From Thainema sp. (lineage in GTDB: Bacteria; Cyanobacteriota; Cyanobacteriia; Phormidesmidales; Phormidesmidaceae), in NCBI GenBank assembly GCA_052168235.1, contig JBQLZK010000029.1:16744-80743 (forward strand): a stretch of 64,000 nt of DNA, read 5' to 3'. Shown here piece after piece: positions 43,537 through 58,108 of this stretch (positions are counted from its first letter, which is position 1; each line of letters starts with the position of its first letter). The translations under genes were made by a program, and so were the position numbers. Below the pieces are notes generated by a model that was not told the origin of the DNA, did no database searches, and worked only from the letters and a program-made list of their open reading frames with translations.

Positions 43537-44079
43537 ATGATTCCTGCTGTGGCCCAAACCCTAGCCCAGATATTGGTTGCGGGCACCTCGATTGGCAGCA
43601 CCGAACAAATTGATTTTGGCTATCCCGGTCTTAAACAGGACTCAACACCGTGCCTGAATCTCTTTTTCTATGGTGTGCAGGAAAGCCAACATTTGGCTTC
43701 CACTCGAACGGTGCGATCGCAAATTACAGATGTCACTAATTCAACCCTACCCTCAGTGAGCTGGTACAACGTGCTGTTCTTGCTAGTGGCTTGGGATGAA
43801 ACCAGTCTGGGTGAACAGCGTTTGCTTTCTGAAGCATTGATGCTGCTACGGTGCTACCCGGCAGTGCCAGAAGCCATTCTGGCTCCTGTACTGCAAGGTT
43901 ACGGTGCACTGCCGTTAGAGGTATCAACGATTCAACTATCCAAGATCTTCAAGCTGTGGCATGCGCTTCAACTTCCTCTGCGCCCTTCTCTGCATGTGTC
44001 GGTGACGGCTCCTTTGAGCCTAGACAGCGTTATGCTGCCGACCTATGCAGATATTTTGTCGTGCTCGTCTGGAGTCTAG
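43537..44079 (+). CDS. DUF4255 / Afp16-Pvc16-like CIS cap protein
   Basis: IDFGYP, LNLFFYGVQE, EQRLLSEAL..L, LWHALQLPLRPSLHVSVTAP; directly upstream of the sheath gene. Confidence 0.85.
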   Translation: MIPAVAQTLAQILVAGTSIGSTEQIDFGYPGLKQDSTPCLNLFFYGVQESQHLASTRTVRSQITDVTNSTLPSVSWYNVLFLLVAWDETSLGEQRLLSEALMLLRCYPAVPEAILAPVLQGYGALPLEVSTIQLSKIFKLWHALQLPLRPSLHVSVTAPLSLDSVMLPTYADILSCSSGV

Positions 44080-44153
44080 TTCTATGGCGTAGCGCTAGAG
44101 CAGCACATTAACCCCTTAAGTATTCCTATCCCATTCATGGAGGATGGCTATCA

Positions 44154-45869
44154 ATGGCTTTAGACTATTTTGCTCCTGGTGTATACGTTGAGGAGGTCGA
44201 TCGCGGCAGTCGCCCGATTGAAGGTGTGAGCCTCAGCGTTGCTGGATTTGTCGGTTTTACGGAAGATGTGCGCGGCGACGCCGAACTCTTCAAACCCATG
44301 CTGGTGACCAACTGGGGTCAATACCTAGAGTATTTCTCCAAACCCGGTTCAGATGGTTTTACCGACGATAATTTCTATCTCCCCTTTGCGGTGCAGGGCT
44401 GGTTTCTCAACGGTGGCGGTCGCTGCTGGGTTACCAGTATTGGTACGAAGCTACCAGGATCAGAGCCAGCTCCACCGGAAGATACAGGCTATCGGCTACC
44501 CACCTCCAGCGGCAAGCCCTCTCTACGCTTTAATCTGAAGCCAGCCGAGGAAGAAGAAGGCGGAGCCCTTGCTCTACCCTCAGCTAACGATGATCGGATT
44601 CGAGTATTGGTTACAGAAGGTGAACCCAAACCACTGCCAGAGGACGCGCCAGAAGATGCAGAAGCACCTTTGAATTCCGGCGAATTCTTTACGGTAACGG
44701 TAATGCGGGGCAGTGAGCAACTTGAAAAATATGAACACCTCACGATGAATCCCGAAGCTGAAACCGAGGTTGCAGACTATGTTGTAACCGCACTGGAAGC
44801 ATCGGAATTCGTTGATATTGCAGATATCTCGGTATCGGGTCAACCGCTATCCCGGCGTCCCGCTTACGGTTCCTACGAAATTGCTCCACCACCTTATATT
44901 TCGTCAGAAGACCGCTTCTCCCGTGACCTACAGGGTCAACGCGACGACCGTACAGGCATGCAGGGCATCTTTGAAGTAGACGAAGTGGCAATGGTTGCCT
45001 GTCCTGACCTAGTGCGGGTTTATGAACAAGGCTTGATGGACATTGACCAAGTGCATGGCGTTATGGAAATGATGCTGAGCATGTGCGAAAATTCTTTCCC
45101 TGGCCCTGCCTATCGGATGGCTGTCCTTGATCCACCGCCAATTAAGCCTGGTAAAGGTGGTGATGCCGTTGCACCTGAAACCCAGAAGCCACAGGACGTG
45201 GCTCAGTGGCTCAGTATGTTCAATCGCCGCTCTATGTTCGGCGCGCTGTACTATCCCTGGATCAAAGTGGCTAATCCCCGTAATGGGGGTCGGCCCATTA
45301 TGGTGCCACCTTGCGGTCACATGATGGGTATTTGGTGCCGCACTGATGAATCTCGTGGTGTTTTCAAAGCACCAGCCAATGAGACTCCCAGAGGTGTAAT
45401 TGGCCTAGCCTACGAAACCAATATGCGAGAGCAAGAGCTGCTCAACCCACTTGGCATCAACTGTATTCGTAACTTTGCCAACTACAACCGTGGTCTAAAA
45501 GTATGGGGTGCCCGTACCTTGGTTGAACCGGATAACGTCCAGTGGCGGTATATCAGTGTGCGCCGCTTGCTCAGCTACATTGAAAAGTCGATTGAAATTG
45601 GGACTCAGTGGGTTGTCTTTGAACCAAATGATCAAGACCTCTGGGCACGAGTCACTCGTACAGTCAGCAACTTCCTAGAGCGGCTTTGGCGGGAAGGAGC
45701 CTTATTTGGTGGCTCTCCGTCTGAAGCGTTCTACGTCAAGTGCGATGGTGAGTTGAACACCCATGAAACGATGATGCTCGGTCGCTTATATGTTGAAGTT
45801 GGCGTTTGCCCAGTCCGTCCGGCTGAATTCGTCATCTTCCGCATCAGCCAATGGGCACCGAATCAATAA
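44154..45869 (+). CDS. Contractile tail sheath protein
   Basis: YFAPGVYVEEV, GWFLNGG, ALYYPWI, VPPCGH..G, RGVFKAPAN, LNPLGINCIR, VWGARTL, WRYISVRR, VVFEPND, PVRPAEFVIFRI. Confidence 0.97.
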   Translation: MALDYFAPGVYVEEVDRGSRPIEGVSLSVAGFVGFTEDVRGDAELFKPMLVTNWGQYLEYFSKPGSDGFTDDNFYLPFAVQGWFLNGGGRCWVTSIGTKLPGSEPAPPEDTGYRLPTSSGKPSLRFNLKPAEEEEGGALALPSANDDRIRVLVTEGEPKPLPEDAPEDAEAPLNSGEFFTVTVMRGSEQLEKYEHLTMNPEAETEVADYVVTALEASEFVDIADISVSGQPLSRRPAYGSYEIAPPPYISSEDRFSRDLQGQRDDRTGMQGIFEVDEVAMVACPDLVRVYEQGLMDIDQVHGVMEMMLSMCENSFPGPAYRMAVLDPPPIKPGKGGDAVAPETQKPQDVAQWLSMFNRRSMFGALYYPWIKVANPRNGGRPIMVPPCGHMMGIWCRTDESRGVFKAPANETPRGVIGLAYETNMREQELLNPLGINCIRNFANYNRGLKVWGARTLVEPDNVQWRYISVRRLLSYIEKSIEIGTQWVVFEPNDQDLWARVTRTVSNFLERLWREGALFGGSPSEAFYVKCDGELNTHETMMLGRLYVEVGVCPVRPAEFVIFRISQWAPNQ

Positions 45870-57579: not shown

Positions 57580-57613
57580 TTGTCGTCAAATGCGCTTGTA
57601 GGGAGGAGAATCG

Positions 57614-58108
57614 ATGACTAGTCTGGTGAAAGCGAAGCTAATTGCCCAAGGGGGCGGTGATGATATTGAGTTCATGTTTAACCCGACGGAACTGGATTTC
57701 AGCCGCAGTATGAACTTGAATCGCTCGGATGGTGCCCGCACGGATGAGGGGTTGCCGAAGGTGACGTTTGGTTCGCCGGAACCCTACAAGCTCTCGCTGA
57801 GCAATCTGACGTTTGACACCTACGAAACGGGTAAGAATGTCTACACGGAATACATCAGCAAGTTTCAGCAAGCGGTTGAGTTTCTGGATGATAAGGAACG
57901 CCCGCCGATTTATCTGTTCACCTGGGGCAGCCAGGAGTATCTGCGCTGTTTTGTGCAGTCGCTGAGCTACAAGCTGACGCTGTTTTTGGCGGATGGCACC
58001 CCCGTGCGCGCGGTGGTTAATTTATCCTTGGAGGAGATTGGCGAAACGACTTCCAATGGAAATACGAGTACACCCAGTGGGAATCGCTCTAGCAGTAGTC
58101 GCTGGTAG
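57614..58108 (+). CDS. Afp7/Pvc7-like CIS tube-initiator protein (no LysM domain)
   Basis: IEFMFNPTEL, LTFDTYE, RPPIYLFTWG, SLSYKLTLF..DGTPVRA.V.LSLEE; GGAGG RBS. Confidence 0.9.
   Translation: MTSLVKAKLIAQGGGDDIEFMFNPTELDFSRSMNLNRSDGARTDEGLPKVTFGSPEPYKLSLSNLTFDTYETGKNVYTEYISKFQQAVEFLDDKERPPIYLFTWGSQEYLRCFVQSLSYKLTLFLADGTPVRAVVNLSLEEIGETTSNGNTSTPSGNRSSSSRW

Follow-up and report, generated by a model that had tools for sequence, protein, structure and literature searches.

The region 43537-58108 of the Thainema sp. DNA is most probably the tail module of one complete contractile injection system (CIS) of the lineage that includes the CISSc of Streptomyces, with the spike, baseplate and ATPase/effector modules encoded at three other genome sites and acting in trans. 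The window, i.e. the whole stretch of DNA analyzed, comprised 64,000 nucleotides. Gene identities, the full part list, the dispersal of the modules, their co-occurrence and a conserved frameshift cassette were supported directly. Judged from its genes, the system would be a known kind of machine carrying new features. Two of these, a predicted frameshift in an assembly chaperone gene and a giant protein that resembles a ruler, are so far undescribed for this machine class.

Gene content of the tail module

A sequence-only reading had listed a cap, a sheath, three tubes, two chaperones, a DUF6760-like segment, an 88-aa protein, a further tube, a giant protein and a tube initiator. Using the ORF list and Pfam, each was found where that reading had placed it, all co-oriented on the plus strand. 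The following features were assigned, including those flanking the module:

40406-41083, minus strand: LuxR-type response regulator, divergent from the CIS operon, candidate regulator (Response_reg 5e-20, GerE 1.6e-20)
41137-42522, minus strand: histidine kinase, candidate regulator (HATPase_c 3.2e-23)
43537-44079, plus strand: cap/tail terminator, Cis16-like, Pvc16_N (PF14065, E 1.5e-18)
44154-45869, plus strand: single contractile sheath, Cis2 (Phage_sheath_1C 1.9e-18, Phage_sheath_1 1.6e-10)
46027-46045, plus strand: terminator-like GC hairpin and T-run between sheath and first tube gene (consensus scan)
46122-46619, plus strand: tube paralog A (PF06841, Phage_T4_gp19, 3.5e-11)
46695-47177, plus strand: tube paralog B (PF06841, 1.3e-11)
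47195-47686, plus strand: tube paralog C (PF06841, 1.9e-26)
47655-48251, plus strand: tail assembly chaperone paralog 1 (paralogy to chaperone 2)
48264-48635, plus strand: tail assembly chaperone 2, 0-frame product of 123 aa (phrog_508 "tail assembly chaperone", E 2.4e-6)
48578-48778, plus strand: DUF6760 ORF (PF20546, E 2.3e-10)
48623-48629, plus strand: proposed -1 slippery site G_GGG_GAG (conservation across related loci)
48626-48778, plus strand: DUF6760 segment, predicted -1 frame C-terminal extension of chaperone 2 (PF20546, frame relation)
48634-48671, plus strand: hairpin 4-6 nt 3' of the slippery site, 10-12 pairs, one bulged A (centroid structure)
48781-49047, plus strand: 88-aa protein with a C-terminal module as in the giant protein (alignment)
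49085-49621, plus strand: tube adaptor, Cis5/Cis1b-like (PF06841, 6.2e-37)
49642-57579, plus strand: 2645-aa low-complexity protein in tape-measure position (single ORF, translation)
57614-58108, plus strand: tube initiator, Cis7-like (CIS_tube, PF19266, 1.2e-21)
62249-63793, minus strand: cell-wall hydrolase gene (Amidase_3 and Glucosaminidase, Pfam)

The genome search yielded one sheath and one gp25 in the 99.99% complete genome. Residues 4-568 of the sheath matched 8bky_A (E 2.8e-109), the haloarchaeal CIS sheath 9ezm was the third-best PDB match (E 2.9e-86), and the match to the sheath of the Anabaena tCIS was limited to the C-terminal domain (E 3.3e-48). Tube paralog C was better conserved than A and B (22 cyanobacterial orthologs at 47-71% identity, Streptomyces yanii at 27%), and of the three it best matched the one tube gene in the S. 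yanii cluster, so that it is probably the Cis1a equivalent; weak PDB matches were to Pvc1 and to Cis1a 8bl4_v. Paralog A was without PDB sequence match at E<=0.01. For the tube adaptor, PDB matches included 9gtp_a, Pvc5 and Afp5, and NCBIfam CIS5_fam scored 2.4e-20, under the family cut-off. The initiator matched 8kea_P (4.6e-8), 9gtp_P (4.2e-7) and Afp7 (0.007); no LysM domain was found in it.

The sequence-only reading had also stated that phage head, lysis and membrane-complex genes were absent. No capsid, terminase or integrase family was detected by Pfam among 45 window ORFs (21 scanned at E<=0.01, 24 at E<=1e-5), and this part was upheld. The statement on lysis needs qualification, as a gene for a cell-wall hydrolase follows at a distance of 4 kb; a holin/endolysin cassette was linked to none of the modules. 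The statement on membrane-complex genes needs one too, since the system does include membrane proteins, encoded on another contig.

Of 54 related loci whose upstream sequence extends over 4.5 kb or more, 29 have the kinase and LuxR genes there in opposite orientation, and this divergent pair probably controls expression of the CIS operon. No hydrophobic segment or membrane helix was predicted in the kinase. RNA-library contigs of one study covered the cluster of a relative of about 90% identity. In one run their depth was 1896 at the sheath and 25-39 at the giant gene, a spread not expected from even DNA carry-over; such depths are unfit for ranking genes. The contigs stopped at 45883 and resumed at 46107, a weak sign of an interruption around the terminator-like hairpin (8 pairs, 6 of them G-C).

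Modules elsewhere in the genome

The remaining parts were located on other contigs:

Contig C62: VgrG (Phage_base_V, 2.5e-26) and DUF4280 protein (1.5e-36), profile matches
Contig C6: gp25, Cis11 (TIGR02243, 1.3e-190), Cis12-like protein of 361 aa (TIGR02242, 2.1e-35), Cis13-like N-terminus (CIS13_fam 2e-14, under cut-off), WD40 protein, 943-aa protein
Contig C8, one gene string: second Pvc16_N protein (457 aa), WHD and AAA ATPase (694 aa), three eCIS_core/DUF4157 proteins
Contigs C34 and C59: two further DUF4157 proteins

PAAR_motif gave no match at E<=0.1, and the tip is represented by the DUF4280 protein, which we take to be PAAR-like. None of the NCBIfam CIS families reached its cut-off. 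With sheath, inner tube, initiator and Pvc16_N cap in the window (Pfam), spike, tip, gp25, Cis11 and Cis12 on C62 and C6, and an Afp15-like AAA+ ATPase beside DUF4157 proteins on C8, the proposed eCIS-type machine was confirmed as a CIS of the Afp/PVC superfamily. The sequence-only reading had named a genome devoid of baseplate and spike genes, together with a lack of particles, as reason to abandon this view; the baseplate and spike genes were found on other contigs. The parts do not form a single contiguous cluster: four contigs carry them, and unrelated genes flank each module. The C8 module was assigned to the system by its family content and the lack of a second sheath, without adjacency, and its membership is accordingly putative.

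Cis11 matched 9gtp_1K over nearly its full length (E 2.4e-108), and no tCIS chain was found for it in the PDB at E<=0.001. The PDB codes for sheath and Cis11 were tied to the Streptomyces CISSc papers. By these pairwise matches (chains 8BKY/8BL4 and 9GTP) sheath and Cis11 appear closest to the Streptomyces CISSc and not to the Anabaena tCIS, which would place the system inside clade IId or beside it, and the Streptomyces-type likeness suggested earlier thus stands. The sections cited of Casu 2023 (PMC10066040), Casu 2025 (PMC12237407) and Vladimirov 2023 (PMC10020575) assign the CISSc of S. coelicolor and S. venezuelae to dbeCIS clade IId.

In the related genome G014 the genes from the sheath through the 943-aa protein are contiguous, in the order C29 (the tail module), C62, C6. 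Full-length sheath orthologs occurred in 18/41 related genomes and Cis11 in the same 18, mostly far apart, by 2.78 Mb in G038. In 35 of 46 cyanobacterial loci with a sheath module, the 8-10 kb downstream were free of further CIS genes. Scattered CIS parts are the usual state of this lineage in cyanobacteria. The architecture described before as unusual is mostly one system split over at least four loci in the customary manner, and the subtype, far from rare, is widespread. The breaks in the cluster fall on two classical junctions, Cis7|Cis8 and PAAR-like|gp25, and genes of the toxin-antitoxin type were observed at two cut ends.

The C6 baseplate operon encodes two large, predicted single-pass membrane proteins (helices 423-449 and 478-507, Kyte-Doolittle 2.57 and 2.72), in which three Ig-like domains precede the helix and a C-terminal domain follows it. 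These proteins are what the sequence adds to the roles suggested in the sequence-only reading, namely regulated cell death, filament fragmentation or action against grazers and competitors. On balance, we lean toward a particle that stays cell-associated, is tethered by these two proteins and fires DUF4157 proteins and/or the membrane proteins themselves, in line with proposals for CISSc and the Anabaena tCIS. The tethering would follow from the domain architecture.

Three other identities were weighed against a functional, cell-associated machine. The remains of an old cluster, dispersed by rearrangements and no longer able to form particles, would fit the cuts at the two junctions and the genes at their ends. 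We consider such a relic very improbable, as every ORF is intact and as long as in orthologs, the 18 genomes with a sheath are also those with Cis11 even where megabases separate the two, and the close relative has RNA-library contigs. Still further from the data is an R-type tailocin or the tail of a prophage. The genes for sheath, tube, chaperones and baseplate do descend from phage tails; however, capsid, terminase and integrase families were missing from the 45 window ORFs scanned, the eCIS hallmarks Pvc16_N, AAA+ ATPase and DUF4157 were found, and the pyocin sheath matched at E 4.6e-9 versus 1e-109 for CISSc. A more serious competitor, though in our judgment still rather unlikely, is a true extracellular CIS whose particles leave the lysed cell and attach to grazers or competitors, with the Cis13-like, WD40 and 943-aa proteins as target-binding fibers. 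The Cis13-family N-terminus, Ig-like arrays and a beta-propeller as common binding modules, the nearby cell-wall hydrolase gene and the DUF4157 proteins, usual eCIS-linked effectors in the sections cited of Weiss et al. (PMC8894136), agree with it. Against it, both large proteins carry a strong single membrane helix unlike a soluble fiber, no module is linked to a holin/endolysin cassette, and the nearest characterized relatives, the CISSc, are described as cytoplasmic and without fibers in the cited parts of the CISSc papers.

Frameshift cassette and giant protein

Pfam offered no family for either chaperone gene. Homologs of chaperone 2 are annotated as "phage tail assembly protein", and its predicted structure (pLDDT 77) had its best PDB matches in YqbN (Z 6.5) and the HK97 tail assembly chaperone (Z 5.8; Foldseek probability 0.94, E 0.044). 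These Z values are middling; together with phrog_508 the fold matches identify a phage-type chaperone. In chaperone 1, conservation is confined to the C-terminal ~100 aa and the true start is uncertain; residues 99-192 align to chaperone 2, with 57-83% identity to its own orthologs. An atlas suggestion of "phage tail assembly protein" for it (score 0.85) was taken as a lead only.

The DUF6760 frame overlaps the end of chaperone 2 in the -1 register, and a fusion of about 171 aa is predicted. G_GGG_GAR or G_GGG_GGN was found at the same position in 8/8, 25/25 and 80/80 related loci, one Streptomyces included, with the Gly codon GGG in 43/43 sequences; the heptamer differs from the canonical X_XXY_YYZ in 74 of the 80. 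Downstream, 89% of the alignment cells of the hairpin were paired versus 27-54% with the partners slid, and synonymous sites are fixed in the G-run and both hairpin arms. Two-sided changes were seen in 2 of 12 stem pairs, and 3 pairs are invariant. The window's own hairpin was modest against shuffles (z -2.0, 7/200; z -0.24 with the G-run included). Since a conserved G_GGG_GAR site and a hairpin precede the -1 DUF6760 frame, the arrangement points to a -1 frameshift of the lambda G/GT type. The same layout occurs in Streptomyces, Acidobacteria, Myxococcota and Anaerolineaceae.

The 2645-aa protein is the largest ORF of the cluster, placed between the chaperones and the baseplate hub. It is rich in S, Q, A, P and T (17, 12, 10, 9 and 9%), belongs to no Pfam, NCBIfam or PHROG family and therefore to no recognized tape-measure family, and no hydrophobic helix or evident coiled coil was detected in it. 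It contains 54 [ILV]Q[RKAQ] motifs versus 12.8 +/- 3.3 in shuffles; motifs of the [ILV]Q[RK] type are common to it and the N-terminal regions of the DUF4157 proteins. Its N- and C-terminal modules are conserved and its middle is variable. Its family, counted as 747 cluster representatives, is marked by a conserved C-terminal module, and the longest members reach ~2700 aa. In relatives the ruler-like orthologs measure 788-2671 aa, while sheath and tubes stay conserved. Short members exist, too: the 88-aa protein has no Pfam family, and its orthologs precede the Cis5-like tube gene. In the S. yanii cluster the homolog is a VQR-repeat protein of 569 aa with the same C-terminal motif.

For DUF6760 and for the giant protein an alternative explanation has to be weighed. 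DUF6760 might be a small independent gene overlapping the chaperone gene. Pfam lists it as a separate family, and 26 of the 80 loci have some start codon in its frame, among them the window with an ATG 55 nt upstream, so that separate translation is possible there. In the other 54, however, the stretch from the previous stop to the conserved GG is free of ATG, GTG and TTG, and several loci have a frame that opens just 10-40 nt ahead of the domain. The fixed synonymous sites and the layout shared by four groups also speak against an independent gene, which we regard as unlikely. The giant protein, in turn, might be cargo, plug or effector in the tube lumen, with particle length set otherwise. 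Its model is Tme, the tape-measure-related effector of the Streptomyces davawensis CIS, which the sections cited of Nagakubo 2024 (PMC11126660) describe as the largest ORF of its cluster, >2000 aa and ~70% disordered, adjoining the initiator and just 5' of the baseplate genes. The variation of the orthologs from 788 to 2645 aa at conserved sheath and tubes and the motifs shared with DUF4157 leaders are in line with such a role. On the other hand, neither the membrane helices nor the C-terminal EndA-like nuclease described for Tme is present, no enzymatic or toxin domain was found with Pfam, NCBIfam or PHROG, conserved termini around a free middle are expected of a spacer, and phage-type chaperones with a G/GT-like frameshift lie directly upstream. 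A pure effector role is thus a minority reading, to be kept in mind. Ruler and effector roles are compatible.

Proposed assembly and relation to known systems

By analogy to phage tails, the two chaperone paralogs would bind the disordered 2645-aa protein. Some ribosomes would slip by -1 on G_GGG_GAG about four codons ahead of the chaperone 2 stop, assisted by the hairpin, and yield the chaperone-DUF6760 fusion as counterpart of lambda gpGT. The conserved C-terminal helix of the giant protein may dock in the initiator/spike hub, and tube and sheath would polymerize around the protein, stopping once the cap attaches close to the conserved N-terminus of the protein, with the kinase/LuxR pair probably setting expression.

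The lambda tail assembly chaperones gpG/gpGT are reportedly made by programmed -1 frameshift, as Xu, Hendrix and Duda are said to have described in 2004. In both systems a small chaperone gene precedes a gene in tape-measure position and is overlapped by a -1 ORF, the slippery site lies few codons ahead of the stop and is followed by a hairpin, and the chaperone fold and HMM match agree. In Thainema the heptamer is non-canonical, the fusion product is predicted, two genes (88-aa protein, tube adaptor) separate chaperones and giant gene, and the machine is a CIS instead of a phage.

With CISSc the system shares the closest sheath and Cis11 by sequence, a single sheath, the Cis1b/Cis5-like adaptor with Cis7 and a nearby LuxR-type regulator; the S. 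yanii cluster additionally has the chaperone, the -1 DUF6760 segment and the VQR-repeat protein. The build of its accessory proteins, with an N-terminus of Ig/PapD type, a single membrane helix and a C-terminus that varies, corresponds to the description of Sco4256-4258. In contrast to CISSc, the Thainema system is split over at least four loci, has three tube and two chaperone paralogs, a Cis13-like protein and DUF4280 in place of a PAAR-motif protein; its ruler-like protein has 2645 instead of 569 aa and follows rather than precedes the Cis5-like gene. The CISSc type is characterized by free cytoplasmic particles that bring about cell death under stress and by CisA, a single-pass membrane protein required for firing. 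No CisA homolog was identified in the Thainema system, and its two single-pass proteins have Ig-like and WD40 domains instead of the described CisA domain. In the sections cited, the CISSc papers (PMC10066040, PMC12237407, PMC10020575) state that a tape-measure gene is missing, yet particles have a uniform length of 268 nm.

The tCIS of Anabaena sp. PCC 7120, as portrayed in the parts cited of Weiss 2022 (PMC8894136), likewise belongs to a cyanobacterium and has putative effectors of the DUF4157 family, two proteins of Pvc16_N type and an N-terminus of the Cis13 family; it shares the idea of membrane anchoring via accessory baseplate proteins, but forms one contiguous operon. Of the tCIS-type features (Cis13 with membrane helix, long Cis12 extension, Cis19 crown) the first two are missing in Thainema, where the Cis13-like protein has no hydrophobic segment and the Cis12-like protein no long extension. 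The haloarchaeal CIS with T6SS-like action, similar in its sheath, differs as an archaeal clade IIa system on a contiguous plasmid cluster; the passages cited of Zachs 2024 (PMC11566945) mention no tape-measure homolog and let an accessory membrane protein decide the mode of action.

Tentatively, and with the odds in our estimation against the proposal as a whole, the CISSc-including lineage may possess an overlooked phage-like length and assembly module, made of chaperones, one -1-extended into DUF6760, and a ruler with fixed N- and C-terminal anchors whose disordered middle has grown from ~400 to >2600 residues. The 2645-aa ruler would then set a sub-micron to micron-long membrane-tethered apparatus, and the hydrophobic-Gln-Arg/Lys motifs shared with the DUF4157 leaders would be a chaperone loading signal for ruler and effectors.

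Because the sheath module usually stands alone (35/46 loci), CIS searches requiring one gene cluster would undercount or mis-score this lineage in cyanobacteria. The conserved cassette of chaperones and frameshift, together with the conserved-ended protein behind it, makes a concrete tape-measure candidate, easily testable in Streptomyces. The natural length variants of the ruler-like protein offer a handle on the length of these machines, and the two predicted membrane-anchored proteins of the baseplate operon one on their position in cyanobacterial cells. Machine length and position both bear on the proposed roles in programmed cell death.

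The tail module and its parts on other contigs

The window comprises the final 64 kb of its contig, in a genome of 7.54 Mb (205 contigs, 99.99% complete). All eleven gene products that a sequence-only reading had attributed to a contractile injection system (CIS) were recovered in place on the + strand by ORF calls and Pfam searches.

Features of the CIS tail module (43537-58108)
+ strand: cap protein (Pvc16_N, E 1.5e-18)
+ strand: single sheath protein
+ strand: three gp19-type tube proteins
47655-48251, + strand: 198-aa ORF, without Pfam family
48264-48635, + strand: 123-aa ORF, without Pfam family
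+ strand: 66-aa ORF, DUF6760 (E 2.3e-10)
48781-49047, + strand: 88-aa ORF
+ strand: fourth tube protein, Cis5/Cis1b-like (E 6.2e-37)
49642-57579, + strand: giant protein, a single ORF of 2645 aa
+ strand: tube initiator (CIS_tube, E 1.2e-21)

As the same reading had asserted, capsid, terminase and integrase families were absent from the 45 window ORFs scanned, and on this ground the interpretation as a prophage tail was dropped. A histidine kinase and a LuxR-type regulator, divergently transcribed, were found 5' of the module. Directly 3' of the tube initiator (58132-61050) lay BrnT/BrnA (BrnT 2.2e-23, with a CopG/RHH-like antitoxin), a 143-aa ORF and a Fic/DOC protein with Fic_N, and on the opposite strand a Phd/YefM antitoxin; GcvH and a cell-wall hydrolase were also encoded on that strand. 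The 143-aa protein was dropped as a CIS part, as it occurred near a CIS module in one relative only. The hydrolase (62249-63793, minus strand, 514 aa), a possible autolysin encoded 4 kb from the module, combines Amidase_3 with Glucosaminidase. The remainder of the window consisted of housekeeping genes including rpoB, pheT and ilvC. Among these (15780-18553, 26 kb 5' of the sheath module) was a second WHD (PF22977, 5e-43) plus AAA (2.7e-8) ATPase of 507 aa, with a DUF2396 gene and an ORF of 145 aa ahead of it; it combines the two domains also seen in the CIS ATPase of contig C8. A protein that joins a Ser/Thr kinase to pentapeptide repeats (6247-7884) and an FHA-domain adenylate/guanylate cyclase (22707-23699) are encoded by signalling genes unrelated to the CIS.

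Genome-wide profile searches yielded one sheath and one gp25, and further parts were located on other contigs of the same genome.

Parts encoded on other contigs
Contig C62: VgrG (662 aa), then DUF4280 protein
Contig C6: gp25, Cis11 (TIGR02243, E 1.3e-190), Cis12-like protein (361 aa)
Contig C6: 457-aa protein, N-terminus matching the Cis13 family
Contig C6: WD40 protein (787 aa), proteins of 943 and 961 aa
Contig C8: Cache/HAMP kinase, Pvc16_N protein (457 aa), 125-aa ORF
Contig C8: WHD+AAA ATPase (694 aa), three DUF4157/eCIS_core proteins
Contigs C34 and C59: two more DUF4157 proteins

The sequence-only reading had allowed for a relic lacking baseplate and spike genes. With gp25, Cis11 and the Cis12-like protein on C6 and VgrG on C62, this explanation was dropped. 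PAAR_motif was absent from the genome at E<=0.1, and the DUF4280 protein was taken as the tip protein in its place. The flanks of the VgrG/DUF4280 pair were unrelated to CIS (pentapeptide, GNAT, cytochrome, ferritin, Fur). In the related genome G014, the genes from the sheath through the 943-aa protein were contiguous and in exactly the order window contig, C62, C6, indicating that the cluster of the window was cut at the Cis7|VgrG and DUF4280|gp25 junctions. Thus, given the single sheath and gp25, the remaining parts on three other contigs and the collinear order in G014, the CIS is complete but dispersed over the window contig and three others. What had been described as an unusual architecture turned out to be the genome-wide dispersal of a complete, widespread system, with parts on C62, C6 and C8. 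Two break points are marked by toxin-antitoxin-type genes, one 3' of the initiator and the other on C6, where DUF2442, DUF433 and DUF5615 genes open the baseplate locus (L003 2562-3603). The gene directly upstream of gp25 (L003 1625-2149, minus strand) encodes a protein of 174 aa for which four membrane helices were predicted; it was not counted as a part, being absent from the contiguous G014 cluster. The five DUF4157 proteins (L027, L028 and L029, on C8, C34 and C59) shared an N-terminal leader of ~150-230 aa with the motifs LLQTRPFQ, QPLQAKLTIG.PNDKYEQEADRVA and LQMKP..QRK, which resemble the giant protein's [ILV]Q[RKA] motifs; the C-terminal domains of the five were without Pfam family.

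Lineage and dispersal among relatives

In a PDB sequence search, sheath residues 4-568 matched the Streptomyces chains 8bky_A (2.8e-109) and 8bl4_V (1.2e-106), and the haloarchaeal 9ezm followed with E 2.9e-86 (best stretch 265-566). Matches to Anabaena All3325 (3.3e-48), Pvc2 (3.4e-47), Afp2 (1.8e-44) and the pyocin sheath (4.6e-9) covered the C-terminal domain only. Cis11 matched 9gtp_1K with E 2.4e-108, the sole other PDB match being a phage wedge protein (3.9e-4). As far as the available text of these papers goes, 8bky, 8bl4 and 9gtp are structures of the Streptomyces contractile injection system, CISSc (PMC10066040, PMC12237407), and 9ezm stems from Halogeometricum (PMC11566945). The kinship to the Streptomyces type had therefore been recognized correctly and is real, by pairwise match of sheath (2.8e-109) and Cis11 (2.4e-108).

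Across 41 genomes (the window's own plus members of its genus, family and class), 18 had a full-length sheath ortholog (57-96% identity), and Cis11 (E<=1e-30) occurred in the identical 18 and in 0 of the other 23; as kin are not independent, this is to be read as a pattern, not as a statistic. Sheath and Cis11 resided on separate contigs in most of the 18 genomes; 2.78 Mb separated them in G038, whose genome is a single contig, G007 and G022 had them in divergent orientation with 8-9 kb between, and in G014 they were collinear. Some relatives (G001 contig C49, G012 contig C9, G033) carried two systems of the same type, with sheaths 57-68% identical to that of the window. The G014 cluster contained a 561-aa CHASE2-domain protein (1e-55; L009 6555-8240) between the DUF6760 segment and a short C-terminal-module protein, and a 1354-aa NACHT-HEAT-TIR protein was encoded 5 kb past it (L010 12957-17021).

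A wider survey drew on the species collection, which contains at least 578 DUF6760 loci; the best 80 were taken, and 53 of these had at least 8 kb of downstream sequence. Of the 53, 46 were counted as cyanobacterial, some titled only 'uncultured bacterium' and assigned by similarity. Among these best 80 loci, 35/46 cyanobacterial ones were without further CIS gene downstream, while the WD40/943 pair followed in 6/46, gp25/Cis11 in 4/46 and tube5-giant-initiator-VgrG in 1/46. The seven non-cyanobacterial loci of the 53 (Streptomyces yanii, Anaerolineaceae, Acidobacteria, Thermoanaerobaculia, Myxococcota and a proteobacterial MAG) were contiguous through VgrG in six cases, again among the best 80. 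Dispersal is the rule for this CIS lineage in cyanobacteria.

A proposed -1 frameshift cassette at the chaperone/DUF6760 junction

The 123-aa ORF matched phrog_508 'tail assembly chaperone' (E 2.4e-6), and its homologs are annotated as 'phage tail assembly protein' in public sources (1232 matches, E<=0.001). The best PDB matches of its structural model (pLDDT 77) were YqbN and the HK97 tail assembly chaperone, with middling scores. The 198-aa ORF is paralogous to the 123-aa ORF in its C-terminal half. The DUF6760 domain lies in the -1 frame relative to the 123-aa ORF and begins shortly past the stop codon of the latter; the junction reads GCG GGG GAG TCC TAA with G_GGG_GAG at 48623-48629. This frame relation together with a G_GGG_GAR/G_GGG_GGN heptamer was found in 8/8 family-level relatives, in 25/25 Pfam DUF6760 matches (23 of 301 cyanobacterial genomes) and in 80/80 loci taken as the best of at least 578 in the species collection, among them loci from a Streptomyces and from Acidobacteria, Myxococcota and Anaerolineaceae; the peptide pattern that fetched these 80 loci did not contain the GG motif. 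Read from one base upstream, the heptamer in these best 80 of at least 578 loci was CGGGGGA (70), TGGGGGA (4), TGGGGGG (5) or CGGGGGG (1), and 54 of them were without ATG, GTG or TTG in the -1 frame from the preceding stop to the GG motif. In some loci the -1 frame opens just 10-40 nt before.

A hairpin of 10-12 bp was found 4-6 nt downstream of the heptamer (in the window, 48634-48645 pairs with 48659-48671). Across an alignment of 43 sequences, pairing held in 89% of hairpin cells versus 27-54% with the partners slid, and two-sided changes occurred in 15 cells versus 5.7 +/- 1.8 in shuffles; 2/12 pairs covaried and 3/12 were invariant. Codons inside the arms were fixed (Tyr TAC 43/43, Val GTA 42/43, Glu GAG 42/43 and 29/32, Pro CCC 39/42, Ser AGC 27/27, Gly GGG 43/43), while outside the arms they were mixed (Tyr TAT 19/TAC 9; Val GTC 18/GTA 5/GTT 3/GTG 1; likewise Ala, Ile, His and Phe). 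S. yanii forms a different hairpin at the same site. By energy alone the window hairpin was modest (z -2.0), and folded with the G-run it gave z -0.24; therefore, single-sequence energy was not counted as evidence and the comparative data were used. Over 40 loci z was -4.2 with mononucleotide shuffles, a weaker control than dinucleotide shuffles.

Taken together, the frame relation with the heptamer, the missing starts, the hairpin and the fixed synonymous sites are the signature of a programmed -1 frameshift, with a chaperone-DUF6760 fusion of ~171 aa as the predicted product. A chaperone fused to a -1 extension is the arrangement known for lambda G/GT. A complex prediction pairing tube paralog C with the DUF6760 segment scored 0.00, which is uninformative either way. 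No study of CIS chaperones, CIS frameshifting or DUF6760 was found in the literature by title and abstract. In the available text of Vladimirov et al. (PMC10020575) the words 'tape measure' and 'frameshift' are absent, 'chaperone' appears once, in connection with pili, and sco4251 is listed as a protein without known function; in that of Casu et al. 2023 (PMC10066040) 'tape measure' occurs once.

Giant protein, membrane proteins and transcription

The giant protein is rich in S (17%), Q (12%), A (10%), P (9%) and T (9%), without hydrophobic helix and without family match in Pfam and NCBIfam, and its gene contains small tandem repeats (units of 87, 66 and 15-30 nt). [ILV]Q[RKAQ] motifs occurred 54 times versus 12.8 +/- 3.3 in 2000 shuffles (maximum 24), and [ILV]Q[RK] motifs 23 times versus 2.4 +/- 1.5. 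Proteins at the same position in relatives comprised 788-2109 aa, with detectable similarity in two regions only: an N-terminal PLG...PLG..SL.VL.P..F motif in four family-level proteins (1673-2109 aa), and a C-terminal module ...LAQE[IV]Y.LLRQRL..E.ER.G... common to 5/6. The 788-aa protein (L024, second system of G001) was missed by both C-terminal motif pattern and profile. The 88-aa protein ends in the giant protein's module. PDB sequence searches with the last 299 residues and with the C-terminal profile gave nothing meaningful. A word-indexed search with residues 2540-2645 returned the giant protein itself and one 2412-aa relative only; it was replaced by an exhaustive profile search of 1.84 billion proteins, which yielded 747 cluster representatives at E<=0.001 and 38 at 1e-10. 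In the best 150 of these 747 (47-2671 aa, median 433, 11 above 2000 aa) no more than 5 residues separated the end of the module from the C-terminus in 131, and M was the first residue in 102, so that some are fragments. In S. yanii (L100 9136-12375), the chaperone and its -1 DUF6760 segment with CTGGGGGAA are directly followed by a 569-aa Pro/Ala-rich protein, encoded before Cis5-like and Cis7 genes, with 13 [ILVA]Q[RK] motifs, VQR in most cases, and the ERERAG C-terminus ...LYGPLSRLLKADLRLERERAG... An acidobacterial cluster encodes a 452-aa counterpart just 5' of the initiator.

CISSc particles are uniformly 268 nm long, and a typical tape-measure gene is stated to be absent, in the available text of PMC10066040 and PMC12237407. 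Conserved ends and a free-running middle fit with a ruler, and the C-terminal-module family is a candidate for the tape-measure role in CISSc. Alternatively, the giant protein may be a cargo or effector, for which Tme of S. davawensis offers a precedent in the available text of PMC11126660.

The WD40 and 943-aa proteins of the baseplate operon each contain one strong membrane helix (423-449 and 478-507), and the two share weak similarity at the N-terminus (E 0.002). For the first 360 residues of the WD40 protein, the structural model shows three Ig-like beta-sandwiches and then a disordered linker, with generic tandem Ig/ASH arrays as structural matches. The pair recurs beside CIS modules of other cyanobacteria. 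By the description in the available text of PMC10066040 and PMC10020575, Streptomyces Sco4256-4258 share the layout of Ig/PapD-like domain, membrane helix and variable C-terminal domain, and both proteins are reminiscent in topology of CisA as presented in the available part of PMC12237407. Membrane helices, Ig-like N-termini, recurrence and the Sco4256-4258-like layout make a cell-associated, membrane-tethered machine the somewhat favoured reading of this domain architecture.

Three metatranscriptome runs of one study contained contigs ~88-92% identical to the CIS module, spanning the cap-sheath region, the tubes and chaperones, the initiator and the giant gene at its two ends, with parts of the giant gene uncovered. 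Habitat labels of runs that shared only a small fraction of the words were set aside. Within the giant gene, these contigs of a close relative showed several indels of hundreds of bases. Depths fell from the sheath (302/1896/58) over the tubes (76/1492/22) to the giant gene (4-39), although such contig depths, from a relative and one study, are unsuited to ranking genes. A terminator-like hairpin sits between sheath and tubes. The RNA-library contigs hint at transcription of the module in this relative.

Beyond the CIS itself, the added value lies in three features open to direct test: a conserved chaperone frameshift cassette, a family of ruler-like proteins that share a conserved C-terminal module, and the baseplate-operon membrane proteins.
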